NCBI GenBank assembly: GCA_036337155.1
Contig: JAYZET010000010.1
Coordinates: 85,630-149,629, forward strand
Length of the DNA: 64,000 nucleotides
Direction of reading: 5' to 3'
Origin: Pseudomonadota bacterium
Lineage (GTDB): Bacteria; Pseudomonadota; Alphaproteobacteria; UBA8366
The translations under genes and the position numbers were made by a program. Below the pieces are notes generated by a model. It was not told the DNA's origin and ran no database searches. It saw nothing but the letters and a program-made list of their open reading frames with translations. Shown here piece by piece: positions 3,265 to 62,107 of the stretch (position 1 is its first letter; each line of letters starts with the position of its first letter).

Positions 3265-4140
3265 ATGAACGAGACCATTCCAGGCGTTTACAGACTGGAA
3301 ACGGGAGGGAAAATGGGAATTCCTCTCGTTTTGGATTCGCCCCACAGCGGGTCAATCTATCCCAAGGACTTCAATACATCGGTCCCAATGGAGGCGTTGC
3401 GCCGAGGTGAAGACATGTATGTAGATGACCTTTTCGGCGAAGGGCCAGAGTTTGGCGCGAGCTTACTCTCTGCTTTGTATCCGCGAAGTTTTATCGACCC
3501 CAATCGTGGCATTTACGATCTTGATCGTGATTTGTTGTCAGAACCGTGGCCGGAAACTGTTCAACCAACGGAGAAGGCACGTCTCGGTCATGGTTTGATC
3601 TGGCGCGTGTGTCCGCCCGATTTACCTATGTATGGACGTCGATTGGCGATTGCGGAAGTGCGGCGGCGGATAGATGACTATTGGCAGCCTTATCACAGCG
3701 CTTTGCAACGCTGCATAGATTATGTGCACTCGCGCTATGGCATGTCCTGGCACATCAATTGCCATTCCATGCCGTCTTTGAGCCTTCCCAAGGATACGGA
3801 GTTGACTGGATTCCGTTTTGCTGATTTTGTTCTTGGCGATCGTGACGGAACGACCTGTAGCCGTGAATTTCTTATGATAGTTGGCAATACATTGGAGGGC
3901 TTCGGGTACCGAGTGAGGATCAATGATCCATACAAAGGGGTTGAAATTGTGCGTAGACACGGGCGTCCGGAAATTGGTCGTCATAGTTTGCAAATCGAAA
4001 TAAACCGTGCCCTCTATATGAATGAGGACACGTTGGAGAAATTACCTGACTACGTTACGTTGAAAGAGCATATAAGCCAACTAATTGAAGTTGTTGGTAG
4101 TTATGCTTTAGGGCGAGTTGGCGCTAAGGCTGCGGAATAG
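3265..4140 (+). CDS. N-formylglutamate amidohydrolase family protein
   Basis: 291-aa ORF. The N-terminal LVLDSPHSG..P motif and overall pattern (HG..LQIEINR) fit the FGase/HutG-like family. GAGGG Shine-Dalgarno (SD) sequence upstream. Confidence 0.65.
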   Translation: MNETIPGVYRLETGGKMGIPLVLDSPHSGSIYPKDFNTSVPMEALRRGEDMYVDDLFGEGPEFGASLLSALYPRSFIDPNRGIYDLDRDLLSEPWPETVQPTEKARLGHGLIWRVCPPDLPMYGRRLAIAEVRRRIDDYWQPYHSALQRCIDYVHSRYGMSWHINCHSMPSLSLPKDTELTGFRFADFVLGDRDGTTCSREFLMIVGNTLEGFGYRVRINDPYKGVEIVRRHGRPEIGRHSLQIEINRALYMNEDTLEKLPDYVTLKEHISQLIEVVGSYALGRVGAKAAE

Positions 4141-7682: not shown

Positions 7683-8552
7683 ATGAAGGAATTCGCGCTA
7701 CGTCCACAACCCAACGATCCCAAATTGACAGAGCGTGTTGCTGGTATCGACCAAAATGGTGATACTTTAGAGGCCCATGTTGTTGTCGAGCGGCCGCTGA
7801 CGATTTTCCTGAATCGACAAGAAATTGTGACGGTAATGACGATCGGCGACTATCCTGACTATCTAGCTGTTGGCTATCTGATCAACCAAAACATGCTTGA
7901 TCCGAGTGAACGAGTTGTTGCGATAGACTTCGAAAAAGAAATAGACACCGTGGTAGTGCGCACCGAAGGGGAAACGGATTTTGAGGACAAGCTGCGGCAG
8001 AAAACCTTGACGTCGGGCTGCGCGCAAGGAACGGTTTTTGGCGACATGATGGAAAATTTCGAGGAAATACAGTTGCCGTCTAACGCTAAAATTCGAACGT
8101 CGTGGCTCTACACTTTGACAAAGAAGATTAATACTGCACCAAGTTTGTACTTACATGCGGGTGCAATTCATGGTTGTGTATTATGTGAGCAGAACCGACC
8201 TCTGATTTATATGGAAGATGTAGGAAGACATAACGCGATTGATAAGATCGCCGGCTATATGGCGCTGCATGGCGTTAGACCCGAAGGAAAGATATTTTAC
8301 ACGACTGGTCGATTGACGTCGGAAATGGTCATCAAGGCAGTGCAGATGCGCATTCCTATCCTCATTTCACGCTCAGGGTTCACTGCCTGGGGCGTTGATC
8401 TCGCTCGTCAGGCAGATTTGACACTGATCGGTCGGGCGCGCGGCAAGAGATTTCTTGCACTCGCGGGACAGCATCGTATCGTCTACGACGCGGACCCGGG
8501 CGCTATTGCCGAGGAAACGGTCTTAGTGAGACGAAAGGGTGCACGAAACTAA
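7683..8552 (+). CDS. fdhD: formate dehydrogenase accessory sulfurtransferase FdhD
   Basis: 289 aa. LTSGCAQG active-site Cys loop and a GRHNAIDK motif, both characteristic of FdhD. Confidence 0.85.
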   Translation: MKEFALRPQPNDPKLTERVAGIDQNGDTLEAHVVVERPLTIFLNRQEIVTVMTIGDYPDYLAVGYLINQNMLDPSERVVAIDFEKEIDTVVVRTEGETDFEDKLRQKTLTSGCAQGTVFGDMMENFEEIQLPSNAKIRTSWLYTLTKKINTAPSLYLHAGAIHGCVLCEQNRPLIYMEDVGRHNAIDKIAGYMALHGVRPEGKIFYTTGRLTSEMVIKAVQMRIPILISRSGFTAWGVDLARQADLTLIGRARGKRFLALAGQHRIVYDADPGAIAEETVLVRRKGARN

Positions 8553-17326: not shown

Positions 17327-18700
17327 TTAACCTTCACCCGGCATTGGAACTGCCATGCCTTCTTCGTTGTATTGTTTTAACTTGTTGCGCAGCGTTCGGA
17401 TCGATATGCCAAGAATGTTTGCAGCATGGGTTCTATTGCCAAGGCAATGCTGAAGTGTATCGATGATTAGGTCGCGTTCGACCTCGGCTACGGTTCGGCC
17501 GACTAATCCTCTGGTATTGGCGTCATTTTCTTCAACGGCTGTTGGATTTTCGTTATCCAAGACAGCTGCCGCTGCGGTCGCCGCAACTGAGGCGACTTCC
17601 TCGTTGCGGCTAAGAACAATTGCATCGGGTCCAATGGTGTCGCCCTGAGCCAAAAGTACTGCGCGATGCATTGTATTCTCGAGTTCTCGCACATTTCCCC
17701 GCCAACCATGGCTTTCTAGCGATGACATTGCTTTATCGCTGATTGGTAGGCGGTCAACCCCATTTGCATCTGCGTATTTTTCAACGAAGAAATTTGACAG
17801 CATGGGAATGTCTAAAGGACGCTCACGTAAGGAAGGCAGCTTTATCTCTATGACATTCAAACGGAAGAAGAGATCTTCGCGGAAATCGCCGTTTCTAACC
17901 GACTGCTCAAGGTTGCGGTTTGAGGTTGCGACAAGCCGCACGTCAATTTTAATGGGGTGTGTACCGCCGACCCTGTCAATTTCGCGTTCCTGGATTGCGC
18001 GCAGCAGTTTGGCTTGCAAACGAATATGCATTTCGCTTATCTCGTCTAGCAGCAAAGTTCCGCCATTTGCTTCTTCAAATTTACCTATACGTCGAGCGAT
18101 GGCACCAGTAAATGCCCCCTTTTCATGACCGAAAAGTTCCGATTCAAGAAGATTCTCAGGGATCGCCGCACAGTTAACGGCAACGAAATTGTTGGTCGAC
18201 CGCTTGCTCTTCGCGTGAATATAACGTGCCATTAACTCTTTGCCGGTACCCGAATTTCCAGTTACCAGAGCGGATGCGTCCGAAGGAGCAATTTTGTCTG
18301 CAAATTCTAATACTTTTTTCATCGCAGGATCAGCATGGATAATAGAATTGCTTTCCTGACTTACAGCTTCGAGAACTGCGGCAATGAGTTCCGGGTCGGG
18401 CGGCAATGGCACATATTCTTTGGCGCCCCCTTTTATAGCTTCGACGGCAGCATCGGCATCGTTTCCGATTCCGCACGCGACGATTGGGAGAATAATTCGT
18501 TCAGTCGAGAGTTGTTTAACCATGTCGCTAACATCTAAGCTGACGTCGACCATAGCGACTTCCGCGCCTTGACCCGAGCGCAATGCATTCATTGCATCTG
18601 ATATAGAGTTGACGTGCGCCACCTTTGCGCCTCGTGTTATAGCGATCTTACTGGCTTCAGTTATGTGGCCTTCCAGTCTGCCAACGATCAAAACTTTCAT
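17327..18700 (-). CDS. flbD: sigma-54-dependent flagellar transcriptional activator (FlbD-like) with degenerate receiver domain
   Basis: 457 aa. AAA+ Walker A GNSGTGKE, GAFTGA loop (EKGAFTGA), ESELFGHE, and a C-terminal Fis-type HTH. The receiver-like N-terminus has GR in place of the DD acidic pair and L in place of the conserved K-P lysine. Confidence 0.85.
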   Translation of the reverse strand: MKVLIVGRLEGHITEASKIAITRGAKVAHVNSISDAMNALRSGQGAEVAMVDVSLDVSDMVKQLSTERIILPIVACGIGNDADAAVEAIKGGAKEYVPLPPDPELIAAVLEAVSQESNSIIHADPAMKKVLEFADKIAPSDASALVTGNSGTGKELMARYIHAKSKRSTNNFVAVNCAAIPENLLESELFGHEKGAFTGAIARRIGKFEEANGGTLLLDEISEMHIRLQAKLLRAIQEREIDRVGGTHPIKIDVRLVATSNRNLEQSVRNGDFREDLFFRLNVIEIKLPSLRERPLDIPMLSNFFVEKYADANGVDRLPISDKAMSSLESHGWRGNVRELENTMHRAVLLAQGDTIGPDAIVLSRNEEVASVAATAAAAVLDNENPTAVEENDANTRGLVGRTVAEVERDLIIDTLQHCLGNRTHAANILGISIRTLRNKLKQYNEEGMAVPMPGEG

Positions 18701-20922: not shown

Positions 20923-21269
20923 TTATTTACCCCCCCTTTGACAGCGGTTTTGCCACCTCAACTGATTAGCTCTTTGCCAGGACTATCATTGAAGGCGATC
21001 TCGGCCTTTATGGACAGAACGTCCTTTATGTCGACGATCTCCGAATATTTAGGCACGTTCTTCTCCCGTGATATTCTTGAGGATGAGTTAGGTCGCTTCC
21101 GAGGTAGCGCTTAGGCCACCCGGCGCGGGTATTGTCCAATTAAATTCGGTGAACAGTTTTGTTGCATATCTGCCCCTCCTGACATGATCAAGTTGGCCAT
21201 ATTTTCGCGTCGGTTTAGGATGTGATAGTCACCATTAACGCGCATTAGTTAGGCTACTCCAACTTCCAG

Positions 21270-23142: not shown

Positions 23143-23163
23143 ACTCGGCAAATTTTGCCGAGT
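23143..23163. promoter_or_regulatory. perfect 21-bp palindrome ACTCGGCAAA-T-TTTGCCGAGT containing the GGCA-N5-TGCC dyad (candidate FlbD-type operator upstream of fliF)
   Basis: Read directly from the sequence: 10+1+10 perfect dyad about 175-190 bp upstream of the fliF ATG. I found no sigma-54 promoter within about 150 bp on either strand. On the minus strand it could alternatively act as a hairpin followed by TTTTC. Confidence 0.4.
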
Positions 23164-26026: not shown

Positions 26027-27622
26027 TTAGACTTGTACGTTGATACGACCGTCTGAAGCCGCTGCTTCAGCGGCGAGCAATGCGGATTCTTCCGCACTTA
26101 GTTCATCCCCGTCCCCAGTATCCGAGGCTTTCTCCTTGTTGTCTCTTGGGGCCTGCCCCCGGTCGGCCATCTCTTGCTCGAATTTGCTACCTTCGCCGCG
26201 AAGGTTGAAGCTCAGGCTGTTCGAATCCGTATTAAGGCCAGCGTCCTGCAGAGCCTGGCGAAGTCCGGCTGCGTCACGCTGCAGCAAATCCAGCGTGTCG
26301 GACCGTTCGGCGCTTACCACCGCCATCGCCCGACCATCCTCGGTCACTTCGAGTTTCACTTCGACTCGCCCCAGCTCCGCTGGCTTCAATTGAATACGGA
26401 TGTGATCCGAACCCTGGCCGACAGCCTTCTTAATTTGTACGGCGACTTGACTGGTCACCTCTTGAGGCGGTACCGGCGGACGAGCAGGGCGGGGGGCCTG
26501 AGACTGCTGACTGCGCTGTGAAGATTGTCCGTTGTTGTTGGCGCCAGGTCCGCCAGCGATTGGATCCGCAATTGTTTGTCCTGTCTGGAGGCCCATATCA
26601 GCTCGTGGCGTCGTAACAGCGGTCATTTGCGTTTGTTGGATCGCTTGCGCCGGTAACAGTGGCGGCGCCATTTGTGGCTGAGGGGGCGGTCCCGCAGGAG
26701 GGTTTTGTGTTTGTCCGGCTTGAGGCTGTGTCGGTTGCGAACGCTCCTGCCTTCCGATGTTGCCATGGTTTGCCAAGGAAGGGCGAACCTCACCATCCAA
26801 ATCTTCTGCGGGAGTAGTAACGATCTCGGCGGACGGTTTCGCCGGTTTATCAGTTTGGGCCGCTAAGGCAACCCCGGCGGCGAGGCTACTGGTCGGCTGA
26901 GACATCATGTCTTCCTGTACCTTCGTCACTTGCACACCGGCCTTTTGATGGTTCGCTGTGCTGGAGACATTGCTTGATTGCGGCTGGCTAGTCGCGTAGC
27001 GGGATCTCGGCAGCTCCTCGAGTGTGACGGTTTCGTTAGGCTTAGCTCGTAATTGCGCAGTAGCGGTTCCTGCGTCTTGTGGGGTTTGGCGCATCAGTTG
27101 CGTATCCGAGGCACGTCGTGCTTCTGCGGCGTTGGCAGAACGGGTTTCGTCAACGCCATTTACTAGGTTTTGTGGGCCCAAGGCTAGCGATTCAGCGGGA
27201 TCGACAACGGTGACTTCTCCACTGTGACCTTTGTTATTTCGATTTCCCTTTGCGTTTTGTTGATACAGAAGTTCTTCTTCGTGGCCGTCCGTGGAGCCCT
27301 TAAATTGATTCTTGAGTTCGCGCGGCGTGCGAGTCGACTCAATCATAGCGGCGTCACCTTGCATTAGACCAAGGCCTTCGTATTTAAGATTATCTTCGCC
27401 CATCCTTGCTTCGTGGGCGACGGTTTGATCCTGCATGTTTAGGGTTTCGTCGAATTCGTCGTTGGAACCCATGTAAGCGACTTGTTTAACGCCTGTTGTC
27501 GAGAGTAGCTGGGAGAACAAATTGCTATTTGTGCTGAACGCAGAGTTCTTCGCGCCTTTATCAGCATCCATACTGTCTGCACCGATGAGACCGAATGGAT
27601 TGTCGATTGCTGAAAGCGTCAT
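26027..27622 (-). CDS. fliK: flagellar hook-length control protein FliK
   Basis: Pro/Gln-rich centre and a C-terminal Flg_hook block IRIQLKPAELGRVEVKLEVTEDGRAMAVVSAERSDTLDLLQRD. The track start at 27658 lies only 4 nt from the -12 element of the promoter at 27662..27677, so I use the next ATG (27622, MTLSAID..). Confidence 0.85.
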   Translation of the reverse strand: MTLSAIDNPFGLIGADSMDADKGAKNSAFSTNSNLFSQLLSTTGVKQVAYMGSNDEFDETLNMQDQTVAHEARMGEDNLKYEGLGLMQGDAAMIESTRTPRELKNQFKGSTDGHEEELLYQQNAKGNRNNKGHSGEVTVVDPAESLALGPQNLVNGVDETRSANAAEARRASDTQLMRQTPQDAGTATAQLRAKPNETVTLEELPRSRYATSQPQSSNVSSTANHQKAGVQVTKVQEDMMSQPTSSLAAGVALAAQTDKPAKPSAEIVTTPAEDLDGEVRPSLANHGNIGRQERSQPTQPQAGQTQNPPAGPPPQPQMAPPLLPAQAIQQTQMTAVTTPRADMGLQTGQTIADPIAGGPGANNNGQSSQRSQQSQAPRPARPPVPPQEVTSQVAVQIKKAVGQGSDHIRIQLKPAELGRVEVKLEVTEDGRAMAVVSAERSDTLDLLQRDAAGLRQALQDAGLNTDSNSLSFNLRGEGSKFEQEMADRGQAPRDNKEKASDTGDGDELSAEESALLAAEAAASDGRINVQV

Positions 27623-27661
27623 AGTCTGGTTTCCGGATACTATTGTTTGCACTGCCATAGC

Positions 27662-27677
27662 TGCATCCGGCGTGCCA
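27662..27677 (-). promoter_or_regulatory. sigma-54 promoter of the fliK-flgD-flgE hook operon
   Basis: The minus strand reads TGGCAC-GCCGG-ATGCA, against the consensus TGGCAC-N5-TTGCA. Confidence 0.65.
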
Positions 27678-27774
27678 ATGCCTACAGAATTGATTTTACT
27701 AATTTAATTGGTGTAATTATCGTGGGCTGTCGGCAAACTTCACCATGCCTAAGGCAATTACTTCACGTCTCGAT

Positions 27775-27787
27775 GGCAGAATCTGCC
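27775..27787. promoter_or_regulatory. GGCA-N5-TGCC dyad (candidate enhancer/UAS for the hook-operon promoter)
   Basis: GGCAGAATCTGCC, exact dyad. Its centre is 104 bp upstream of the promoter 5-prime end. Confidence 0.45.
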
Positions 27788-27977
27788 CAATGCTGGGAAG
27801 ATCACAGCCCACAAGGAAACGATTTTAAGTCATTTGGGAATAATACATCTCTCTTGACGTTTTCGGCCATAAAAATTTGAACCGTTCCGTTAAAAGATGA
27901 GGACGGTGGGCACGATGTAATATTTTCCGACTAATCGTTTAGTCGGTTGAGTAGTTCCTCGTCGGAACCATGCAAGT

Positions 27978-28412
27978 TTAAACGGCTTCGTCGATCACTG
28001 CGCCGTTTAAATCGTTATCGGTGCGTTGCGCAGGAGGCTCTAGTTGTTCGCTCACGAACCGGACGAATTCCTCTGAGGGGATCTGTTCAATCACCTGGTC
28101 GGTGCGCGTATCTACAACCTCAAGGAAGACCTTGTTTAGTTCATTATTGAAACCAACTTGCGTCCGGCGGCTGGAGAACTTGAGGCTGTCGAGAGCTTGT
28201 TGAGCGCTTTTCAGCTCGGGTAAATCCTGCCGTGTCAAACTCTTGCCATTGTCGTTTTCGGGCCCGTTTGACTGACTAGATTGGCTGACGACAGCATCAG
28301 GATTGCTTTGTAATGTTTTTACGGCCGAACCGCCGCCAGGTATAGGATTACTGCCGCTTTGAGAACCGGATTGCGATTGCAGAGATGGTAATGATGAAAA
28401 ATTGACGTCCAT
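27978..28412 (-). CDS. flaG: FlaG-family flagellar protein
   Basis: The C-terminal block VGFNNELNKVFLEVVDTRTDQVIEQIPSEEFVRF matches the FlaG signature. I chose ATG 28412 (GGGAGG 6 nt upstream). The longer track ORF would begin inside the sigma-54 promoter. Confidence 0.65.
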   Translation of the reverse strand: MDVNFSSLPSLQSQSGSQSGSNPIPGGGSAVKTLQSNPDAVVSQSSQSNGPENDNGKSLTRQDLPELKSAQQALDSLKFSSRRTQVGFNNELNKVFLEVVDTRTDQVIEQIPSEEFVRFVSEQLEPPAQRTDNDLNGAVIDEAV

Positions 28413-28593
28413 TTGAACCTCCCGTGATGGCATTCTGCTACACGTGATGGCCACGGCGCTGAGCAATTTATCGTTGGGCCCAAGTGCCGCTTGTGTCCCA
28501 GTTATAGCGGAGCAATTCTGGCCCGCTAGGACCGGTTCACTGTCGCCCAAGCCCGACGGCATCATTGCCAGCCGGCAGGCGCACCTGAATACA

Positions 28594-28609
28594 TGCAATG
28601 TGTATGCCA
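28594..28609 (-). promoter_or_regulatory. sigma-54 promoter upstream of flaG
   Basis: The minus strand reads TGGCAT-ACACA-TTGCA. This implies a leader of roughly 170 nt to the ATG at 28412. Confidence 0.65.
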
Positions 28610-28705
28610 ATTCAGCCTGTTTGAAGTTGTTTAAAATATTATTTTAACCCATTGAAAATAAATGAAATTCTAATTTCATAGATGAATGTGTTTCCGTAAT
28701 GATAC

Positions 28706-28718
28706 GGCATAAATTGCC
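28706..28718. promoter_or_regulatory. GGCA-N5-TGCC dyad (candidate UAS for the flaG promoter)
   Basis: GGCATAAATTGCC, exact. Its centre is 103 bp upstream of the promoter 5-prime end. Confidence 0.45.
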
Positions 28719-28827
28719 TCCAGTGAACCCATTAGAAACGTCAAATCTGCACTATGGAGTGATTTGTTGCTATTCTCATTTTTGATTGTTGATAATAATA
28801 ACGACATTTCAATAAGTTATGCTGATC

Positions 28828-28870
28828 GGTAAAATTTGCCTAGAAATGAGCTGGGCAGGCAAATATTGCC
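28828..28870. promoter_or_regulatory. pair of dyads GGTAAAATTTGCC (28828..28840) and GGCAAATATTGCC (28858..28870)
   Basis: One near-exact and one exact copy of the same dyad, 30 bp centre to centre, in the flaG / PhyH-gene divergent spacer. Confidence 0.35.
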
Positions 28871-28977
28871 CATTACTTCCGTGCTACCGGTTTGCGGCGT
28901 GTTAATTCGGTGGGTAACGGAGGAATGGACCGAATTTTGCTCACATGCGGTTATGCAGTCAATGCCGGAGAATTGCC

Positions 28978-29808
28978 GTGTTCTATAAGACGCAAGTCGA
29001 GCGTTATCGCGAAATGGGCTTCGCTGTTTTGAAGAACGCATTTGAGCCAACTTTAGTTGAGAGTGTTTTCAACGAAGTTTGTGATGTGTTTCGTCCAATC
29101 TTAAAGTATCATGGCATCGTCTCGCCTGAAATTATCGGGGATGAATTTGAAGACGCTTTAGCAAAACTTTTCTGCCAAGACATGTCGGCATATTTGTCAA
29201 CGGCAAAGGCAGTTCAATTGACGCCTGGCCTCCATGCTCTTGGTGCTCATCCCACAATGATAAATCTGGTAAGATCCTTTGGGATTGCGCAACCGCTGAT
29301 TGCTGTTCGGCCCGTTGTTCATATTTTGTCGGATAAACTTCGTGTTAATCAAGGATATCACCGCACCCCTCCACATCAGGACTGGCGCAGCGTTCAGGGC
29401 AGCCTGGATTCTTTGGTCGTTTGGTTGCCATTAGTTTCAATCAATCGCGGCTTCGGTGCAATGGAGGTCATTCCGGGTAGCCATCTCGAAGGTTTGCTCG
29501 AGACTAGGCGTGATCCTTTTGGTAACGTAATTGATGCCTCATTAATCGATGGCAAACGTTTCGTGCCAGTTGAAGTGGACCCGGGCGATGCGATAGTATT
29601 TTCGATGTTTACTGTTCATCGCACGGGTACCGAACAACGTTCGGGTATTCGCTGGGCAGCAAGTTTTCGATATAACAATGCTGCCGCTCCAGATTATGTC
29701 TCTCACGGCTATCCCGATCCCTTTATCTATAAGTCGCAGGACGAATTATTAATTGACGGGTTTCCTACTTTAGAAGAGGTACGCGCCACTTTTTTAAAGC
29801 TGGACTAG
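28978..29808 (+). CDS. PhyH-family Fe(II)/2-oxoglutarate dioxygenase
   Basis: HQDW (H-x-D) and a distal TVHRT His, with the overall phytanoyl-CoA dioxygenase pattern. I prefer the GTG at 28978 (GGAG 8 nt upstream) over the track ATG at 28945. Confidence 0.65.
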   Translation: MFYKTQVERYREMGFAVLKNAFEPTLVESVFNEVCDVFRPILKYHGIVSPEIIGDEFEDALAKLFCQDMSAYLSTAKAVQLTPGLHALGAHPTMINLVRSFGIAQPLIAVRPVVHILSDKLRVNQGYHRTPPHQDWRSVQGSLDSLVVWLPLVSINRGFGAMEVIPGSHLEGLLETRRDPFGNVIDASLIDGKRFVPVEVDPGDAIVFSMFTVHRTGTEQRSGIRWAASFRYNNAAAPDYVSHGYPDPFIYKSQDELLIDGFPTLEEVRATFLKLD

Positions 29809-32527: not shown

Positions 32528-33194
32528 GCCTAAAATTTAGCTCCGCAGTCTGATGAGGCAAAGCGCTGACCAAAAAATACATGCAACGAGAATGCCGCCC
32601 GAACGCTTTTTATATGAGTTAACCAGTCACGACAGATCATCGCCATAACAATTATTTTAATTGTCGACAACCTGGCTCAACTCATGGTTTTCCCATGTTT
32701 GTGTGTTGGACCCTTTTGGCCTCTCATCCAAAGACCGACACTATTGTCTTTCTTTGGTTGACTGGGTGAAAATTACGCAATTAACGGTTATAGCCTCCAC
32801 ACCAATATTTCAGACCGTAAGTAAAAGGGTTAATTTTTATTAAAATACATCACAAATTATAAGCAACACAGAAATACGTTTAATGATGTTGTGCAACCAC
32901 AAGTTTGTTCTCAAAAGGCGCAGTCTTGCTCTACGATTAACGTATGCGACGTAGTAGTCATTATGCAGTAGAAAGACGAAATTGCGTTTGTTTTCAAAGG
33001 TGAAAAGCAGGCCATGCCAGGTTGAGCAAAATTTTGTCTTATTGCCTCCGAGTTTGAGTTGTGGTTGTCCTTTCAACCTGCCGCCTGAGGCTCGTATGTA
33101 TGTTGAATCGAGAATGTTATATCCTTTTGCCCTGAGTGGATTGCGCATAGGATGAATTTTTAGTCGGATAAAAAACAAATGATTAAAAGACGTC

Positions 33195-35339: not shown

Positions 35340-37513
35340 CGAGCAGTGGTGATCCATTGGATGATGCGCGGAGCCTCATTGAGCAGGGTGAGTTAACTGA
35401 GGTGGACGCTGTGCTGGGCGATCTTATCGAATACAGCTATGAGGCGGCCATGTTGGCAGGTGTTGCCGCAAATAGGGCTGGAGATTTATCGACTGCAATT
35501 AAACGTTTTCGCCGTGCGGCGGAAATTGAACCAGGCCGTTTTGAGGCAACCTTGAATCTTGGGCTTACCTATAGAGCCATGGAAAACGATACAGCGGCTG
35601 AGACGGCTCTTCGGCGGGCTCTTGATCTTTCTCCCGGTTTGGTGGCGGCCAATTTCGCCTTGGGTAATTTACTGATGCAGGGCGGGTTATTAGAGGATGC
35701 TGTTCACAGGTTCACTGCAGTTGAGGTGTCCCAGCCGCACCACATAGGAGCGTTAAACAATCTTGGTATCTGTTACGGCCGGCTCGGTAAATTGGACGAT
35801 GCGGCCACAAATTTCGAGAGCGTTTTGGAATTTGAGCCTGAGCATGTCGGTGCGCTCGCAAATCTTGGTGCTATTCGATCTGAACAGGGTCGTAGTGAAG
35901 AGGCAATCAATCTTCTTAAGCGTGTTCTCACATTGGAACCCGAACAAGTCGAGGCTACTAATAACCTTGGTGTAGCCTTGATGGATAAAGGTCGTTACGG
36001 TGAAGCGGCGGAGCTGTTACGTTTGCTGACTGAAAACAATAGAGCGGGTGCCGAAGCTTTTAGTAATCTAGGTAATGCCTTGGCGAAGCTTGGTGAGACT
36101 GCACGCGCCGACGAAGCCTATCAGCAGGCATTTTTGCTAAAACCTGATCCAGGAATTCGTGTCAAACGAGCGATGCTTCTGCCGATTGTTAGCGCATCAA
36201 CGGAAGTAATGGACGCCGCGCGATCAGAATTCGAACGACGGGTCGATGCTTTGATTGCCGATCCGCCCCAGCTCGACGATCCGTTTTCTGAAGTCGGTGT
36301 AACGACCTTCGCGCTTTCCTATCAAAATTATTTGAATCGGACTTTAATGGAGAAAGTAGCGAGGATGTATCGGGGGATCTGTCCCGCCTTAACCTATACT
36401 GCTGCGCATTGCGGCAAGATTGGACAGGGAAATGATCTTCCCGTGCGAATTGGTTTCGTGTCTCGCTTTTTTCAAAACCATTCGGTGGGGCGCTGTTTCC
36501 ACGGCATTCCCCGCTTCCATGGGCGTGATGACATAGAGATAACGGTCTTTACCTTTACGACGGAACCCGACCCTTTATGGCGGCAGATCGAAAAAGATGT
36601 CGACAAGACGGTTGTGCTGCCCGCGCATTTCGGATCAGCTCGAAATCAAATTGCGTCTGAAGAAATTGATATCCTTGTATATACAGACATCGGAATGGAC
36701 CCGCTGACGTATTTTCTCACGTTCTGCAGACTAGCTCCGTTGCAATGTGTGCTCAGCGGTCATCCAGATTCAGTCGGGGTCGATACAATCGACGCATATA
36801 TTAGCTGCGATATGCAGGAACCACCTGATGCGGAGGAGCACTATTTGGCTCCACTGGTTCGACTGCCAGGATCACCGACGTATTATGAGCGGCCAAAATT
36901 ACCGGAGCCGATGAAACCGCGAGGAGCATTTGGCCTACCAAATGATGCACCAATTTATTTTTGTGGTCAGACATTGATAAAAATACATCCAGATATGGAC
37001 GCACTCTTTCGCGGCATTCTAGAGCTAGACCCCGATGGTGAGCTTGTTTTCCCTGAAGGTTATACTCCGGAACTCGCAGATTTGCTATCCAACCGGTTCC
37101 GCGAGACCCTTGGCTCGCTTGCTGCGCGTGTCAAGTTTCTACCAGCGATGAGCCATACAGACTATATGAACGTTTTGGCTTTTTCTAATGTAGCACTGGA
37201 TACTCGGCCATTCGGTGGTGGTAACACAAGTTGGCAAGCTATTGCTGTTGGGACGCCAATGGTGACCTGGCCCGGCCATTACTTGCGAGGTAGATATACT
37301 CAGGCGCTTTATCGGCTGATCGGCGTGGAGGATGCTATTGCAAACTCAGCAGAGGACTACATTGCCCGTGCCGTTAAATTTGCCACCGACCGGGCCTTTA
37401 CGGTCGAATTCAATGACCGTGTTCGCGATCGTGCAGACCGAATTTTTTGCGATCGCAGACATGTGGATGCCCTCTATAGCTATTTGCTTGATCGCTTCAG
37501 CTCTGTGCTCTGA
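35336..37513 (+). CDS. TPR-repeat protein fused to SPY/OGT-like (GT41-type) glycosyltransferase, copy 2
   Basis: 725 aa. Its GTG overlaps the upstream stop (GTGA). It has the same C-terminal motifs: LVYTDIGMDPLTYFLTFCRLAPLQCVLSGHPDSVG, FGLPNDAPIYFCGQ and LDTRPFGGGNTSWQAIAVGTPMVT. Confidence 0.8.
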   Translation: MTSSGDPLDDARSLIEQGELTEVDAVLGDLIEYSYEAAMLAGVAANRAGDLSTAIKRFRRAAEIEPGRFEATLNLGLTYRAMENDTAAETALRRALDLSPGLVAANFALGNLLMQGGLLEDAVHRFTAVEVSQPHHIGALNNLGICYGRLGKLDDAATNFESVLEFEPEHVGALANLGAIRSEQGRSEEAINLLKRVLTLEPEQVEATNNLGVALMDKGRYGEAAELLRLLTENNRAGAEAFSNLGNALAKLGETARADEAYQQAFLLKPDPGIRVKRAMLLPIVSASTEVMDAARSEFERRVDALIADPPQLDDPFSEVGVTTFALSYQNYLNRTLMEKVARMYRGICPALTYTAAHCGKIGQGNDLPVRIGFVSRFFQNHSVGRCFHGIPRFHGRDDIEITVFTFTTEPDPLWRQIEKDVDKTVVLPAHFGSARNQIASEEIDILVYTDIGMDPLTYFLTFCRLAPLQCVLSGHPDSVGVDTIDAYISCDMQEPPDAEEHYLAPLVRLPGSPTYYERPKLPEPMKPRGAFGLPNDAPIYFCGQTLIKIHPDMDALFRGILELDPDGELVFPEGYTPELADLLSNRFRETLGSLAARVKFLPAMSHTDYMNVLAFSNVALDTRPFGGGNTSWQAIAVGTPMVTWPGHYLRGRYTQALYRLIGVEDAIANSAEDYIARAVKFATDRAFTVEFNDRVRDRADRIFCDRRHVDALYSYLLDRFSSVL

Positions 37514-40082: not shown

Positions 40083-41189
40083 ATGATCAAGAATACAACC
40101 GCAATCCCTTTGATGAAGCCTCGCCTACCTGATCGAAAGGCGCTGGAACCTTATCTCGCTGAAATTGACCAAAACCGTTGGTACAGTAATTTCGGCCCTT
40201 TGGAACGTCGGTTCGAGGCACGCCTGGCTGATTATTTTGGTGTCAGGGATCAGCAAATAATTTGCGTTTCCAGCGGCACGCAGGCGCTCAGCATTTCTCT
40301 GAAGTCAGTTGCCCGATCGACTGTTGGATATTGTTTGATGCCGTCCTTTACTTTTGTTGCTACTCCGCACGCGGCTGTTGCGGCTGGTCTCGAGCCTTAC
40401 TTTCTTGATGTGGATCTAAATACTTGGGCGCTCGATCCTAATGCGGTTAAATCTATTTTGCCGGCATTTGAAGGGCCGATTGCTGCGATCCTACCCGTTG
40501 CACCGTTCGGTGCATCTTTCGATATTGAAGCATGGGATGATTTCCACCGTGAGACAGGTATTCCAGTAGTTGTGGATGCAGCTGCCGGCTTTGACTCTGC
40601 ACGGCCAGGAATGTCACCAGTTATGGTTAGTTTGCATGCTACGAAAGCCCTAGGTATAGGAGAAGGTGGATTGGTTTTATGTCGGGATAATCGGATCGCT
40701 GCTAAAATTAGAGGTGGGCGAAATTTCGGTTTCATGGGAGGCCGGATTGCTACAATTCCAGGAAGTAATGCAAAGCTAAGTGAATATGGAGCTGCGGTGG
40801 GCCTTGCTTCTCTCGATGCATGGCCTGAAACCAGAGCTCAGTTACTTAGAATTGCGGCAAGCTTTCTAGATGTATTTGAAGGAATTGATAGCCTTACATT
40901 TTCGCCGGGATTTACGGTCGACCACGCGGTGACAACTTGCAATGTGGCATTTAAGGAGCCGATAGCGTCAATTGTCATTGATGAGCTTGCTCAAGCGGGT
41001 ATAGATGCTCGCCGATGGTGGAACCACGGCTGTCATAAAGAACCCATATTTAGCGGATGCGGTAAAAGTAATTTAGATGTAACAGAATATCTCTCCGAGC
41101 GTGTGGTTGGTTTGCCTTATTTTATTGATCTCGATTTGCCACAAATGCAAAAAATTCGGGACTGTGTAATCCGAGCGGTGGCTCGGTAA
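40083..41189 (+). CDS. DegT/DnrJ/EryC1/StrS-family PLP-dependent sugar aminotransferase
   Basis: IPLMKPRLP near the N-terminus and the PLP-lysine block SLHATKALGIGEGG. An alternative coupled start is the ATG at 40029 (ATGA with the upstream stop). Confidence 0.85.
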   Translation: MIKNTTAIPLMKPRLPDRKALEPYLAEIDQNRWYSNFGPLERRFEARLADYFGVRDQQIICVSSGTQALSISLKSVARSTVGYCLMPSFTFVATPHAAVAAGLEPYFLDVDLNTWALDPNAVKSILPAFEGPIAAILPVAPFGASFDIEAWDDFHRETGIPVVVDAAAGFDSARPGMSPVMVSLHATKALGIGEGGLVLCRDNRIAAKIRGGRNFGFMGGRIATIPGSNAKLSEYGAAVGLASLDAWPETRAQLLRIAASFLDVFEGIDSLTFSPGFTVDHAVTTCNVAFKEPIASIVIDELAQAGIDARRWWNHGCHKEPIFSGCGKSNLDVTEYLSERVVGLPYFIDLDLPQMQKIRDCVIRAVAR

Positions 41190-41203
41190 GAGTTGCCCGA
41201 TTT

Positions 41204-41216
41204 GGTAAATGTTACC
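41204..41216. promoter_or_regulatory. variant dyad GGTAAATGTTACC nested in inverted repeat TTGCCCG(41193..41199)/CGGGCAA(41216..41222)
   Basis: A perfect palindrome with a symmetric C-to-T / G-to-A change relative to GGCA-N5-TGCC. Its centre is 93 bp upstream of the flagellin-1 promoter. Confidence 0.3.
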
Positions 41217-41302
41217 GGGCAATTAATGTATCTATGGCGCAGTTCCGAATTCACCGATTAAAAATATTAAATAAAATCAATATGTTAAAATAATTAATGC
41301 GC

Positions 41303-41318
41303 TGGCATCGCGGTTGCC
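41303..41318 (+). promoter_or_regulatory. sigma-54 promoter of flagellin gene 1
   Basis: TGGCAT-CGCGG-TTGCC. This implies a leader of about 95 nt. Confidence 0.65.
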
Positions 41319-42306: not shown

Positions 42307-42319
42307 GGCAATAGTTGCC
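42307..42319. promoter_or_regulatory. GGCA-N5-TGCC dyad (candidate UAS for flagellin gene 2), embedded in a longer imperfect hairpin 42291..42335
   Basis: GGCAATAGTTGCC, exact. Its centre is 106 bp upstream of the promoter at 42419. The enclosing hairpin (TTTTTGACGCCG...CGGCGGCAAAAA) could also act as the flagellin-1 terminator. Confidence 0.45.
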
Positions 42320-42418
42320 TGGACGGGCGGCAAAAATTTCCTCTACGGGCAATTTTTTCCTACTTCTTCGTTACATTAGTAGCTACTAAGTATCTCAAAA
42401 ATATAGCGTTTAGGTTGA

Positions 42419-42434
42419 TGGCATGGTCGTTGCT
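42419..42434 (+). promoter_or_regulatory. sigma-54 promoter of flagellin gene 2
   Basis: TGGCAT-GGTCG-TTGCT. This implies a leader of about 100 nt. Confidence 0.65.
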
Positions 42435-44366: not shown

Positions 44367-46196
44367 TCAAAGATTAGTCACATCAATCTCTACTGCAGGA
44401 TCGTTTTGGACGAAACGACGCCACATTTCTCTATAAGCCTTTTCAAGACTTCTTGTAGTTAATTTTGTGTCGAAAAGTGCACAGGTTGTGCGGTTTTTGA
44501 TGATCTTACGGCGAATTGCGGCTAATTCGTCAGCATTAGTTGCCAAGCGATAAGCCAATGCGCCATATTGATCGACAGACTCTGTAACCAATTCCGAAAG
44601 CCCTGCTGCAGTAAGCAAACTTGCCGACACGCGGGAAGCAAAGTGATTTCCTTTTATAGTGACGACAGGAAGCCCGGCCCATAATGCATCGCTAGTCGTT
44701 GTGTGGCCGTTATAGAAATGTGTGTCTAGAGCAAGATCGGCTACTGTCATCCGCTGAAGATGCTGGGGGCGTGGTAGCATCTCTGCGAAGATTAATCTAT
44801 CTCGTTCAATACCCGCATTTACCGCGATACGTGACAAGTTTTCTACGGCTTTTTGATTGTTTTGAAGTATCCAAAGGCCGCTATCTGGAATAGATTTAAG
44901 TAAATCAATCCAAATATAAAATATTTTTTCATCTAGTTTTATGGGGTTATTAAAAGAGCAGAATAAAAAATTAATTTTTTCTTTCAATGAATCGTGTTCT
45001 TTCTTAAATAAATTTTCTTGAGTATTATCATTCGCTTGATATGTCCCGGGTAAATAAACTAAAGATTCGCTAAAGTAGCGAGCTGTGTCAGGCGGCGCCA
45101 CGATAGGATCGGCGACAATGTAATCGAAGAAATCTGCACCGGTTGTCCCAGGGAAGCCAAGATAAGTGATTTGTATGGGCGCCGGACGTTTTGCAAAAAT
45201 ACCAAGTCGATTGTTTCGCGTATATCCCATTAAATCAACTAGGATATTGATGTTATCATTACTTATAATTTCTGCTGCCTCAGCATCGTTTTTATCTCTT
45301 ATGTCGACGAAGGCATGGCAGTTGCTTCGGATGTCTTCACGATAGGCGCTTGGTTTGTCAGGGCCATGCGAGTAAGCGCATATTTCGAACGTTTCGCGTT
45401 CATGAGTTCGGAACACACCGCGCATGAGATGGCTCATAGCGTGGTTGTGGAGGTCCCCGCTGAGATAACCTATACGAATTTTGTGCTTCATGTTGGTGCT
45501 GTATTTGCCGGTTCTTGGGTGACGACTGAGATCGACCCCTCTCTCCAGTCGAGAACTCCAAGATCTGGCTACTAAGAAATTCATTTTCGGATTATCTACG
45601 CGATGCACGTTGTCGAAAGGCGGTTCGGGTGCAGCTTGATCTTGAGCAAATGCCGCCTCGTTTAATTGATCTATATCCTGAGAAAGTTTGGTTAGCTCTT
45701 TACCCCATTCGCATGTCACGCGCAGCAGAGGATATAGTCCTGCACTTGCCACGTTACATTTTGGTTGCAGGTCGAGAGATTGGCGAAAGAATGAGATAGC
45801 TTCTCCGGTGCGCCCAGCTTCCGCATGAATAGCTCCCAAGCGATTTAGAACATGGGGCGTTGGCTTGACATTAGCCCACAGTTTCAAATAGGGGAGTGCT
45901 TCGTCGTTTTTGCCGGCTTGGAGCAGCAAGTCGCAAAGCATGGAAAGTTTATTTGTGTCTGTCTCTTCTATTTTGATTGATGAGCGCAGATACGAAATGG
46001 CATCGTCCTGTGCATCTAGTTGGATGCTAGAAATTCCGGCAAGGTAATTCGCGAAGCTATTGTTTTTGTCTTGCTCTAGTAGTTGACGGCATAACCGCAA
46101 GCAGAAAGCCCATTCGCCCCGCTCGGCATAGTGGGAAGCGTTCTGGAGAGCGTCAATTAAATCTTGGTCTGTCATGATACTGCAATTTTGCATCAT
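44367..46196 (-). CDS. TPR-repeat protein fused to SPY/OGT-like (GT41-type) glycosyltransferase, copy 3
   Basis: 609 aa. C-terminal LDTHFYNGHTTTSDALWAGLPVVTIKGNHFASRVSASLLTAAGLSELV is the classic SPY/OGT catalytic-domain motif. The middle of the gene is visibly more AT-rich. Confidence 0.8.
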   Translation of the reverse strand: MMQNCSIMTDQDLIDALQNASHYAERGEWAFCLRLCRQLLEQDKNNSFANYLAGISSIQLDAQDDAISYLRSSIKIEETDTNKLSMLCDLLLQAGKNDEALPYLKLWANVKPTPHVLNRLGAIHAEAGRTGEAISFFRQSLDLQPKCNVASAGLYPLLRVTCEWGKELTKLSQDIDQLNEAAFAQDQAAPEPPFDNVHRVDNPKMNFLVARSWSSRLERGVDLSRHPRTGKYSTNMKHKIRIGYLSGDLHNHAMSHLMRGVFRTHERETFEICAYSHGPDKPSAYREDIRSNCHAFVDIRDKNDAEAAEIISNDNINILVDLMGYTRNNRLGIFAKRPAPIQITYLGFPGTTGADFFDYIVADPIVAPPDTARYFSESLVYLPGTYQANDNTQENLFKKEHDSLKEKINFLFCSFNNPIKLDEKIFYIWIDLLKSIPDSGLWILQNNQKAVENLSRIAVNAGIERDRLIFAEMLPRPQHLQRMTVADLALDTHFYNGHTTTSDALWAGLPVVTIKGNHFASRVSASLLTAAGLSELVTESVDQYGALAYRLATNADELAAIRRKIIKNRTTCALFDTKLTTRSLEKAYREMWRRFVQNDPAVEIDVTNL

Positions 46197-53215: not shown

Positions 53216-53231
53216 TGCGAATGGCATGCCA
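53216..53231 (-). promoter_or_regulatory. sigma-54 promoter of the flgI-flgJ-flgN-flgK-flgL-(GT-GT) transcription unit
   Basis: The minus strand reads TGGCAT-GCCAT-TCGCA. It sits within the 12-nt palindrome ATGGCATGCCAT. Confidence 0.6.
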
Positions 53232-53256
53232 TGTTTCTATCTCGTTAAGGTATTGA

Positions 53257-53276
53257 TTAATATAAATTTAATTAAC
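53257..53276. promoter_or_regulatory. CtrA-box-like TTAA-N7-TTAA(TTAAC) in the flgI/fliX divergent spacer
   Basis: TTAATATAAATTTAATTAAC read directly from the sequence. The context is AT-rich, so a chance match is plausible. Confidence 0.25.
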
Positions 53277-53334
53277 CCAAGCTAAAAATTTATAAGTATT
53301 GGGCAGGGGTCAGGGAAAGCCGTGCCGGGTGTTT

Positions 53335-53347
53335 GGAAAAGATTGCC
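53335..53347. promoter_or_regulatory. near-dyad GGAAAAGATTGCC (one mismatch), candidate UAS for the flgI promoter
   Basis: Its centre is 110 bp upstream of the promoter 5-prime end. It is flanked by the direct repeat TGCCGGGT (53323..53330 and 53344..53351). Confidence 0.3.
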
Positions 53348-53416: not shown

Positions 53417-53845
53417 ATGAAGATCGAAAAAACGTCACCGATTGGCTCGTCGCCTGTTAAAAGAGGCGAGCGTTCGGGAAAGACTGCCGCCGGGAAGTTC
53501 TCGAAACAGGTAGGCGCAAAAGAAACATTATCGGTAGACCCGGTCAGTGGTGCGGCTCCGGTACAGGGGGTTGACGCGCTCCTCGCGATACAAGAGGTGG
53601 AGGATTTGACTGCCGATGGTCGAAATGCACGTGGCCGCTATTGGGGTGAAGAGTTACTAGACCGTTTAGAATCTATTCGTTTAGGCCTTCTTGCTGGGGG
53701 AATTCCGGCCAGTGAACTGCGCAATATTTCGAACTTACTTACGTCTCAACGTGAAGCCGCCAGTGACCCACGATTGCAGGAAATTCTGGAAGAAATCGAG
53801 CTTCGTGCAAGGGTAGAACTCGCGAAATACGAGGTTGGTCGCTAG
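53417..53845 (+). CDS. fliX: flagellar assembly regulator FliX
   Basis: 142 aa. It is divergent from flgI, as in Caulobacter. The C-terminal LLDRLESIRLGLLAGGIP...DPRLQEILEEIELRARVELAK fits my memory of FliX. Confidence 0.65.
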   Translation: MKIEKTSPIGSSPVKRGERSGKTAAGKFSKQVGAKETLSVDPVSGAAPVQGVDALLAIQEVEDLTADGRNARGRYWGEELLDRLESIRLGLLAGGIPASELRNISNLLTSQREAASDPRLQEILEEIELRARVELAKYEVGR

Positions 53846-57845: not shown

Positions 57846-57893
57846 ATTCCGGTCTCATCCTTCCAAATTGAAACTCCTCCAAATAATTAGGTC

Positions 57894-57909
57894 AGCAGGA
57901 TACGTGCCA
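57894..57909 (-). promoter_or_regulatory. sigma-54 promoter of flgF-flgG-flgA-flgH
   Basis: The minus strand reads TGGCAC-GTATC-CTGCT. It lies about 39 nt upstream of the flgF ATG, measured from the predicted start site. Confidence 0.6.
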
Positions 57910-57985
57910 AAAAATTTTTCTTTTATTATCAGATATTTAAATATTAATGAGCTCGGCTGATAAATTTATATATCCGGCTTTGCCG

Positions 57986-57998
57986 GGTAGATGATGCC
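57986..57998. promoter_or_regulatory. near-dyad GGTAGATGATGCC (one mismatch) within a CCGGC/GCCGG-rich patch (57974..58004)
   Basis: Its centre is 83 bp upstream of the flgF promoter. The neighbours CCGGCTTTGCCGG and TGCCGGCAA carry related half-sites. Confidence 0.3.
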
Positions 57999-58155
57999 GG
58001 CAATAGGGAAATTTCGTCGTATCTGTCGATATTTATAGAGACTTAATGTTTTGCATTTTTTGATCTTGTTAATTATTGTGTTGCAAGTATTTGTGATGTG
58101 TTTGTATTAAAGAAACAAAGTCATGGTCTAAATTTAGTATTATAGAGACATAGTA

Positions 58156-61056: not shown

Positions 61057-62107
61057 ATCTGATATTATGGCATTAAATCGACGTCAAGCTATTTTCAAAT
61101 GAGTGTATTAGTTTACTCCTTTATTCTAAATGGCAATTCTCATTGTGGATGATTAATAGCACGATTAGATAACTATCAGGAATTCTCCCAAGCGTTGTGG
61201 GTTTGAAAATTGTGAAAAATTAGATTGATGGTGGCGAGGCCTCAACAATTCAAAGCAAATTTAGTCTGAGCTTGTATTATCTAGTTGAATTTGAAATTTG
61301 CCGGAAATCTAATTTTTATGAAGACCGTTCTTGTGGGTCGCAACTTTGAAAGTATGCATTTCATTAGGATGATCCAAAAAAAATGCTGAGATCATTGCAG
61401 TCTCTCAGTAAAAAAGAAATATTAAGAAATAATTCGAAATACATAAGTGCTCGTTAATATTTATATCCGGTATTTTTTTATGTACTACGAAGTGTTTATT
61501 TGATAAACTTAATTATTTTTTAAATAAAATAGATGTTTGGAGAGCAAGTAATTGGTCTTGATCAATCTGTTTCTCGCTGAAATCTCAGGTATTGCAGAAT
61601 ACGTTATGATCAGTCTGTAAGGTGGTATCTTTGGCGTCGATATACGTGTATTCAGAAAAATAGAAGTGCTGAACGAGGGTACGAGATCATCACGAATCAA
61701 ATACGGGCGCTAAAAACATAGTAGACGCGCAACGCACTTATTATAGTGCCGGCAGACGAACTACATATCGCTGTATTAGCCACGGAAATAGCGAGCAAAT
61801 CCACCTGGGGTTTGTAGAGGAAGAATACCCGTCATCTGTCAAATGTAGCAAATATAGCAAAGGTGCAGCGGAACAACGATGCCGTGGCTTTAGAGTTTTG
61901 AGACATCGATGGGTAGTGACATCAAAAGTGTCATGTTCAGGGTGTACGTAATTAACCCGATGGTGGTGGGAGAGTTGTCGAACTTGAGTAATGATATAGT
62001 GAGAGACTAGAAGATGGATCAGAATTTCGGGGTAGTAGATGTGGAAATATCTATAAAGAAAAATTCGCTGTAAGATCTGTGTGACTAGGAAGAGGTGGTT
62101 CCCCACA

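Follow-up and report, generated by a model that had tools for sequence, protein, structure and literature searches.

In a 64,000-nucleotide stretch of DNA from an uncultured marine alphaproteobacterium (contig JAYZET010000010.1, positions 85,630 to 149,629; termed “the window” below), predicted sigma-54 promoters of flagellar genes are paired with upstream copies of the palindromic dyad GGCA-N5-TGCC. We consider these dyads to be ftr-type enhancer sites for FlbD, an activator encoded in the same gene cluster, and assign this reading a probability of about 0.85. The motifs are enriched, fixed in position and conserved at orthologous promoters, and their core is identical to that of the Caulobacter fljK site. 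FlbD, an NtrC-family activator that depends on sigma-54, is under the control of FliX and not of a kinase. The paired motifs are the known FlbD/sigma-54 architecture of Caulobacter (1989-1995), rediscovered in a new lineage. The “readable code” that an initial annotation of the window had proposed for the flagellar genes, sigma-54 promoters served by FlbD-type enhancers, is supported; it is a known architecture and not a new one.

Distribution of dyads and promoters in the window

A scan of the whole window yields six exact copies of GGCA-N5-TGCC, at 23147, 27775, 28706, 28858, 35455 and 42307. Dinucleotide shuffles of the window contain 1.13 exact dyads on average, and only 1 of 100 shuffles reached six. 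Intergenic DNA, 8,644 bp in total, accounts for five of the six copies, all of them in flagellar intergenic regions; in these 8,644 bp, 0.06 copies are expected analytically from base composition and 0.12 from a Markov-1 simulation (at least five in 0 of 300 runs; Poisson P ~8e-9). The single copy in coding DNA, at 35455, has a GC-rich spacer. A comparable dyad density inside coding DNA had been named beforehand as an argument against the pairing; with one copy in 55.4 kb versus five in 8.6 kb, this test fails to refute it. Taken by themselves, dyads with one mismatch show no more than a weak intergenic enrichment (8 of 34 lie between genes, P=0.08). The number of exact intergenic copies given in the initial annotation, five, was correct, yet its makeup was not: the copy at 28858 is exact, whereas its neighbour at 28828 has one mismatch, and the exact dyad at 23147 was overlooked and is absent from the list.

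Candidate sigma-54 promoters were scored with a weight matrix that is our own approximation of a published compilation and serves for ranking only, and start sites were predicted 12 nt downstream of the -12 GC. The six top intergenic matches all lie, correctly oriented, 5' of late flagellar genes, either in intergenic DNA or at misannotated gene starts: flagellin 2 (42419, plus strand, 17.5 bits), fliK (27677, minus, 17.2), flgF (57909, minus, 16.8), flaG (28609, minus, 16.7), flgI (53231, minus, 15.2) and flagellin 1 (41303, plus, 12.6). Seven matches in the window score at least 14 bits, compared to a mean of 1.1 in shuffles, and all seven strings that fit the promoter pattern of the initial annotation are found at the coordinates given. 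Both motifs of the initial annotation are confirmed.

The distance between the two motifs varies little. Measured from the middle of the dyad to the promoter's 5' edge, it amounts to 104 bp at fliK, 103 bp at flaG and 106 bp at flagellin 2, as the initial annotation had claimed, which places the exact dyads at -130, -129 and -132 relative to the predicted starts. Weaker dyad variants lie at -95 to -138 of flgF, flgI and flagellin 1.

Conservation across related loci

The comparison comprised 37 loci anchored on FlbD, seven anchored on FlaG (L082-L088) and 80 metagenomic loci anchored on FlgI. The aggregate set of the window and 125 loci covers 1.48 Mb and contains 147 non-identical strong sigma-54 matches. 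An exact dyad is centred between -145 and -80 in 74 of the 147, versus 0.8% expected from the overall dyad density, and almost no dyads occur elsewhere between -325 and +55. The dyad centres cluster at -129, -119/-116, -106, -98 and -87, in steps of approximately one helical turn.

Promoter and dyad are jointly conserved at the orthologous fliK, flaG, flgI, flgF and flagellin promoters in dozens of loci. The FlbD-anchored loci retain the gene order fliF..fliN-(motA)-flbD-flhA, and the hook operon dyad is found at -129 in L029, at -131 in L010 and L011, and at -87/-88 in L002, L003, L006 and L007, with one-mismatch copies in L004 and L037. Approximately 40 metagenomic fliX-flgI intergenic regions harbour an flgI promoter together with a single dyad or two, at -137/-116, -119/-98 or -107/-88. 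The flgF promoters of relatives carry either one exact dyad (-106) or two abutting sites 14 bp apart (-121/-107, -119/-105, -112/-98 or -110/-96), and at the flagellin promoters there are two or three sites, spaced by about 21 bp. These positions suggest phased slots (-87, -98, -106/-108, -116/-119, -129) throughout FlbD/FliX-bearing Alphaproteobacteria, and further suggest that lineages jump between slots by whole helical turns, as with fliK, where the site lies at -87 in one clade and at -129 in another.

Control regions of the hook operon and flaG

Coordinates of the features discussed are compiled in the table. At the hook operon, the proposed pair of promoter and exact dyad is present. 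The gene start bears on this arrangement: homologues of FliK comprise 532-536 amino acids and carry the Pfam Flg_hook domain, and this length places the start at the ATG at 27622 rather than at 27658. The promoter is therefore genuinely upstream, while a start at 27658 would set it against the ATG. In an alignment of eight orthologous regions the promoter forms an invariant TTGGCA..N..TGCA block and is conserved in L082-L088 and L029. The dyad is likewise a conserved block of this alignment, which is 72% identical overall: it is exact at -128 to -130 in L082, L084, L086, L087 and L029 and has one mismatch in L083 and L088. Two weaker elements at -87 and -108 (27732..27761) are helically phased. 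At the former position relatives show GGCT-N5-TGCC (-86 to -88), which is an exact dyad in L088, and at about -108 they share an invariant ATTGCC block.

For flaG, the pair of promoter and exact dyad likewise stands as proposed. The promoter is a conserved block of the intergenic alignment and scores 16.7-18.1 bits in L082-L085, L087 and L088, and lower in L086. The -129 site has one mismatch in L083 and L085, and in L084 and L086 a degenerate GGAA-N5-TTCC occupies the same alignment position. The predicted leader of flaG is about 171 nt long (28413-28583), has a length of 170-215 nt in seven of seven relatives and matches no Rfam family.

Further upstream, a pair of ftr-type sites is common to flaG (-251/-281) and the divergent gene of a PhyH-family dioxygenase (-118/-88). 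This pair is found in eight of eight orthologous regions, mostly with the same spacing of 30 bp, and no block of the intergenic alignment is better conserved. The candidate promoter of the PhyH-family gene has an atypical -24 element, TGGACC instead of TGGCAC. The block GAGCAAtATTCaGTCC, TGGAC(C/T)(G/A)AA(T/A)(T/A)TTGCT, occurs in six of seven aligned sequences, namely the window and L082-L086, but not L087. The dioxygenase is encoded by the open reading frame at 28945; since homologues have 275-278 amino acids, the start is placed near the GTG at 28978. The PhyH-family gene is the first of a sugar/flagellin-modification island, and its candidate promoter together with the site pair suggests that FlbD may control this island.

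An IHF-like element lies between site and promoter at fliK (~27692-27704) and at flaG (~28650-28662), each with one mismatch to WATCAANNNNTTR and inside a conserved CAAT..TTA block, and a perfect match, AATCAATATGTTA, is found at flagellin 1 (41275-41287). These elements are candidates; the consensus WATCAANNNNTTR is easily met by AT-rich DNA.

Table. Predicted regulatory elements and associated genes in the window
Feature	Position	Strand	Description
fliK-flgD-flgE promoter, sigma-54 type (-24/-12), predicted	27662..27677	-	TGGCACGCCGGATGCA; 17.2 bits; predicted start ~27651
ftr-type putative FlbD site, fliK	27775..27787		GGCAGAATCTGCC; exact dyad, centre -130 of predicted fliK start
Weaker fliK site	27732-27744		GGCAAACTTCACC; -87, 2 mismatches
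fliK half-site	27753-27761		GGCAATTAC; -108
fliK, hook-length control protein	26027..27622	-	Pfam PF02120 Flg_hook, 3.6e-17; start ATG 27622
flaG promoter, sigma-54 type, predicted	28594..28609	-	TGGCATACACATTGCA; 16.7 bits; predicted start ~28583
ftr-type site, flaG	28706..28718		GGCATAAATTGCC; exact dyad, centre -129 of predicted flaG start
flaG	27978..28412	-	Weak NCBIfam FlaG matches; homologues carry Pfam PF03646 FlaG
ftr-type site pair, 30 bp apart	28828..28870		GGTAAAATTTGCC (28828, 1 mismatch) and GGCAAATATTGCC (28858, exact)
PhyH-family gene promoter, sigma-54 type, candidate	28926..28941	+	TGGACCGAATTTTGCT; 10.3 bits; predicted start ~28952
PhyH-family dioxygenase gene	28978..29808	+	Pfam PF05721, 1.8e-15; likely start GTG 28978
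Flagellin 2 control region	42307..42434	+	Promoter TGGCATGGTCGTTGCT at 42419-42434
Flagellin 1 control region	41185..41318	+	Promoter at 41303-41318
flgI control region	53216..53347	-	Promoter TGGCATGCCATTCGCA (53231-53216)
flgF control region, divergent from fliLM	57894..57998	-	Promoter TGGCACGTATCCTGCT (57909-57894)
ftr-type site, fliF	23147..23159		GGCAAATTTTGCC; exact dyad inside 21-bp palindrome, ~180 bp upstream of fliF
flbD, sigma-54-dependent activator	17327..18700	-	NCBIfam NF050807 equivalog, 756.6 bits versus cut-off 750
fliX, trans-acting FlbD partner, divergent from flgI	53417..53845	+	Pfam PF10768 FliX, 1.1e-35

Flagellin, flgI and flgF promoters

Flagellin 2 shows the proposed combination of its promoter with the exact dyad 106 bp upstream, at 42307 (-132), and two further sites with one mismatch each follow at 42329 (-110) and 42348 (-91). 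In L089, a close relative, the corresponding sites are located at -132, -109 and -91. At flagellin 1, the promoter proposed at 41303 is present, but the variant dyad assigned to it, 41204 (-119), contains two symmetric mismatches (GGTA..TACC), and a better site, with one mismatch, lies at 41185 (-138). The near-dyads proposed for flgI and flgF are both present upstream of their promoters, each with one mismatch: at flgI the site at 53335 (-136) is accompanied by another one-mismatch site at 53314 (-115), and at flgF the site 57986-57998 (-109) abuts a half-site at 57972-57984 (-95). In the intergenic region 57846-58155, the ftr-like sites at 57972-57998 lie between flgF and the divergent fliL-fliM operon and could serve either of them; in Caulobacter, fliL-fliM belongs to class II.

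Apart from these promoters, three sigma-54-like matches were evaluated and set aside. The matches at 3748-3763 (plus strand, 15.2 bits) inside a formylglutamate amidohydrolase gene and at 45311-45326 (plus strand, 14.6 bits), antisense within a GT41 glycosyltransferase gene, lack a true dyad partner and are regarded as background. The match CGGCATTCTCGTTGCA (32582-32597, minus strand, 12.2 bits) lies upstream of a hexapeptide-transferase operon in the glycosylation island; it is not counted as a regulon member, because no dyad within two mismatches exists in the intergenic region upstream of that operon.

The fliF-proximal dyad

The exact dyad at 23147 is embedded in a perfect 21-bp palindrome, ACTCGGCAAAATTTGCCGAGT (23143-23163), and among all copies of the motif it is the best conserved. 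In 19 of 25 related loci, the interval 90-280 bp ahead of the fliF start codon contains an exact GGCAAWTTTTGCC-like dyad, and four further loci (L010, L011, L023 and L035) have a one-mismatch copy in the corresponding position. The loci concerned include the closest relatives and reach as far as Azospirillum soli and Kordiimonas. Sigma-70-like hexamers overlapping the fliF-upstream dyad are no better than chance. In Caulobacter, FlbD represses PfliF (PMC4083442), and a conserved dyad upstream of fliF fits this published role of FlbD as a class II repressor. The site at 23147 is a candidate FlbD repression site and probably the equivalent of ftr4.

The flagellar gene cluster and its regulators

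According to a gene map drawn from NCBIfam and Pfam profile matches, the window is a Caulobacter-type flagellar region with a GC content of 48.8%. It comprises the gene run fliF..fliN-motA-flbD-flhA-flhF, the hook operon fliK-flgD-flgE, an flgF-flgG-flgA-flgH operon divergent from fliL-fliM, and two flagellin genes (~275 amino acids each) followed by the genes for FlbT and FlaF. The divergent layout of fliX and flgI is retained in about 40 related loci. The FlbD-like activator, which the initial annotation had recognised, passes the cut-off of the FlbD equivalog model in an alignment over the full length (residues 1-457), and lies far under the cut-offs of the NtrC, FlgR and other NCBIfam models. 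Its best relatives, with 90-91% identity, stem from the metagenome-assembled genomes (MAGs) UBA6544 and MarineAlpha4_Bin2; the best 120 homologues are all marine relatives, and Caulobacter is absent among the matches listed. FlbD, FliX, FlbT and FlaF together correspond to the Caulobacter-type hierarchy.

Some features of the window lie outside this scheme. One kilobase (61057-62080), located between a gene with an MgtE_N domain and two MotB-like genes, is devoid of open reading frames of at least 80 amino acids. No Rfam family matched anywhere in the window, and a 16-mer common to 37830 and 60086 was judged a mere 16-bp coincidence.

Comparison with Caulobacter and other activators

The FljL sequence of Caulobacter (PDB 9cem) served as a query to retrieve the flagellin locus of C. 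vibrioides (CP023315.3; L081, 20.8 kb). Its fljK promoter, TGGCCCGGCAATTGCT (TGGCCC-N5-TTGCT), is preceded by a perfect 19-bp palindrome, CCCGGCAGAAATTGCCGGG (CCCGGCA-GAAAT-TGCCGGG), centred at -108, and by a second site, CCCGGCAACAATTTCCC, at -137. The dyad of the window is regarded as the canonical ftr core, because the fljK promoter bears the same core at -108; the likeness to FlbD sites drawn in the initial annotation is thereby borne out. The locus contains two exact dyads, and the other one, GGCATTAAGTGCC (7902-7914), overlaps the flbT start and is either a chance occurrence or a real site. FlbD binding was established in Caulobacter. The ftr elements at its flbG (hook operon), flaN, fljK, fljL and fliF promoters were reportedly defined by Mullin and Newton (1989/1993), Benson et al. 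(1994), Wingrove and Gober (1994) and Wu et al. (1995), studies to which PMC3096577 refers.

The window and Caulobacter share the regulator pair of an FlbD equivalog and FliX, the hook operon, the divergent arrangements of flgI with fliX and of the flgF operon with fliLM, and the order of flagellins followed by flbT-flaF. Also shared are the sigma-54 type of the promoters (recognised here by their letters), the palindromic core about 100-130 bp upstream as in fljK, and the occurrence of sites in pairs 20-30 bp apart. A copy in the fliF promoter region, where FlbD represses in Caulobacter, and an IHF-like, AT-rich element between site and promoter may be shared too. The differences concern the host, which is uncultured and marine, with 49% GC and 'MarineAlpha4' and UBA6544 as the nearest named MAGs, as well as the sites, which have A/T-rich spacers and mostly miss the outer CCC/GGG arms of the Caulobacter 19-mer. 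The promoters read TGGCA(C/T) in the window versus TGGCCC in the Caulobacter promoters read. Moreover, flaG has its own sigma-54 promoter and a leader of ~170 nt in the window, whereas it follows fljK in L081, and the window has a conserved site pair that flaG shares with a PhyH-family gene bordering a glycosylation island.

According to the literature, FlbD acts as an activator at class III/IV promoters and as a repressor at those of class II (PMC4083442). NtrC (NRI) at glnAp2, FlrC, FleR and FlgR are likewise enhancer-binding proteins with dyads about 100 bp from sigma-54 promoters, with tandem sites for oligomer assembly and with IHF-dependent or intrinsic bending in between (cf. PMC7064773). 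However, these activators are phosphorylated by a cognate kinase and have other recognition sequences, while FlbD has no kinase and is under the control of FliX (PMC3096577, PMC7064773).

Alternative explanations

The dyads might be operators of another protein, either a different NtrC-family activator or a dedicated repressor, that coincide with FlbD-regulated genes. The narrow margin of 6.6 bits by which the protein of the window clears the NCBIfam cut-off for FlbD lends this idea some credit, and GGCA/TGCC half-sites resemble sites of other NtrC-family members. Yet the same core is found at Caulobacter fljK within the same range of -85 to -140, the motif is found together with flbD and fliX in every related locus, and NCBIfam and Pfam profile searches of the window revealed no second activator gene in the flagellar cluster. 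In addition, the dyads are locked in position to sigma-54 promoters, which require an enhancer-binding protein. Taken together, another protein is an improbable owner of the sites. A chance origin of the matches in AT-rich intergenic DNA could draw on the one shuffle in a hundred that reached six copies and on the weak enrichment of one-mismatch sites. It is contradicted by the gap between expected and observed intergenic copies, by dyad positions that differ by no more than 3 bp among three promoters and by conservation at orthologous positions in dozens of loci; the intergenic enrichment and the aggregate co-positioning refute it, and we give it practically no weight.

Alternatively, the palindromes could function in RNA, as hairpins or terminators, the site at 23143-23163 for instance as a terminator after the hook operon; on the minus strand, a terminator scan did report ACTCGGCAAAATTTGCCGAGT with TTTTCACTTCA after it, at 23163-23143. 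However, a stronger terminator with a 12-bp stem is already located after flgE (23835-23807), and relatives keep the letters GGCAAWTTTTGCC while the flanks vary and the stem shrinks to 4-5 bp, which indicates that sequence rather than pairing is conserved. The other dyads have arms of 4 bp and a spacer of 5 nt and, being located upstream of promoters, would not be transcribed in the sense that an RNA hairpin requires. A function as RNA is thus very improbable.

Several observations weigh against FlbD-bound enhancers as the explanation of the dyads. The sites at flgI, flgF and flagellin 1 are imperfect, with one or two mismatches, and the -129 site of flaG is poorly conserved beyond the closest relatives. 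The sigma-54 matrix is an approximation, and the start sites are predicted; since the loci are phylogenetically dependent, the aggregate counts overstate the number of independent events. The ftr identity draws on one Caulobacter promoter (fljK), and FlbD binding, start sites, activation and repression are predicted from sequence. The gene for sigma-54, rpoN, was not found in the window. Finally, fliG appears truncated: only 347 bp (20923-21269) separate fliF from a fliH-like gene, whereas the corresponding interval in relatives measures about 1.07 kb and encodes a FliG of 337 amino acids. A tblastn comparison of the 337-residue FliG of the relative L001 with this gap recognised only residues 1-24 and 60-94. 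This reflects either a true loss of an essential motor protein or an assembly fault of the MAG, and the flagellar system of this genome may be non-functional, or the contig misassembled.

Proposed mechanism

If the dyads are FlbD sites, FlbD dimers would bind to between one and three GGCA-N5-TGCC sites, all on the same side of the helix, at about -85 to -140, and an AT-rich, IHF-like bend, possibly with the help of IHF, would bring the bound FlbD to the sigma-54 holoenzyme. The holoenzyme would occupy the promoter consensus TGGCA(C/T)-N5-(T/A/C)(T/C)GC(A/T/C), which would then be opened upon ATP hydrolysis. Late class III/IV genes would fire after the early structure has been built, once FliX releases FlbD. 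Genes switched on in this manner would be the hook operon (fliK-flgD-flgE), flaG, flgI-flgL, flgF-flgH and both flagellins, and the motif upstream of fliF would most likely allow FlbD to shut off the early class II operon.

Implications

The finding reveals no new mechanism. Three aspects are modestly new: the conservation is broad and positionally quantised, flaG has a promoter of its own with a leader of ~170 nt, and a site pair is shared with the PhyH-family gene. In the marine clade, the data suggest that one site pair would drive flaG in one direction and the PhyH-family dioxygenase in the other. That the system goes beyond a copy of Caulobacter in all three respects jointly, i.e., phased site slots, a regulon reaching the PhyH/glycosylation island and flagellin modification timed by an assembly checkpoint, is a tentative proposition, with the odds leaning slightly against it.

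Nevertheless, the FlbD/ftr/sigma-54 logic is readable from sequence alone in uncultured marine Alphaproteobacteria, and it is conserved at the fliK, flgI, flgF, flagellin and fliF promoters across many lineages. The motif pair can be used to annotate late flagellar operons and to mend gene starts in MAGs, as was done here for fliK and the PhyH-family gene, and predicted regulon members can be derived from it, for example flaG and the PhyH-family gene. The natural spacing variants are useful for studying how enhancer-binding proteins are positioned. If the shared site pair functions as suggested, the assembly checkpoint that times hook and filament would also set the timing of flagellin modification.

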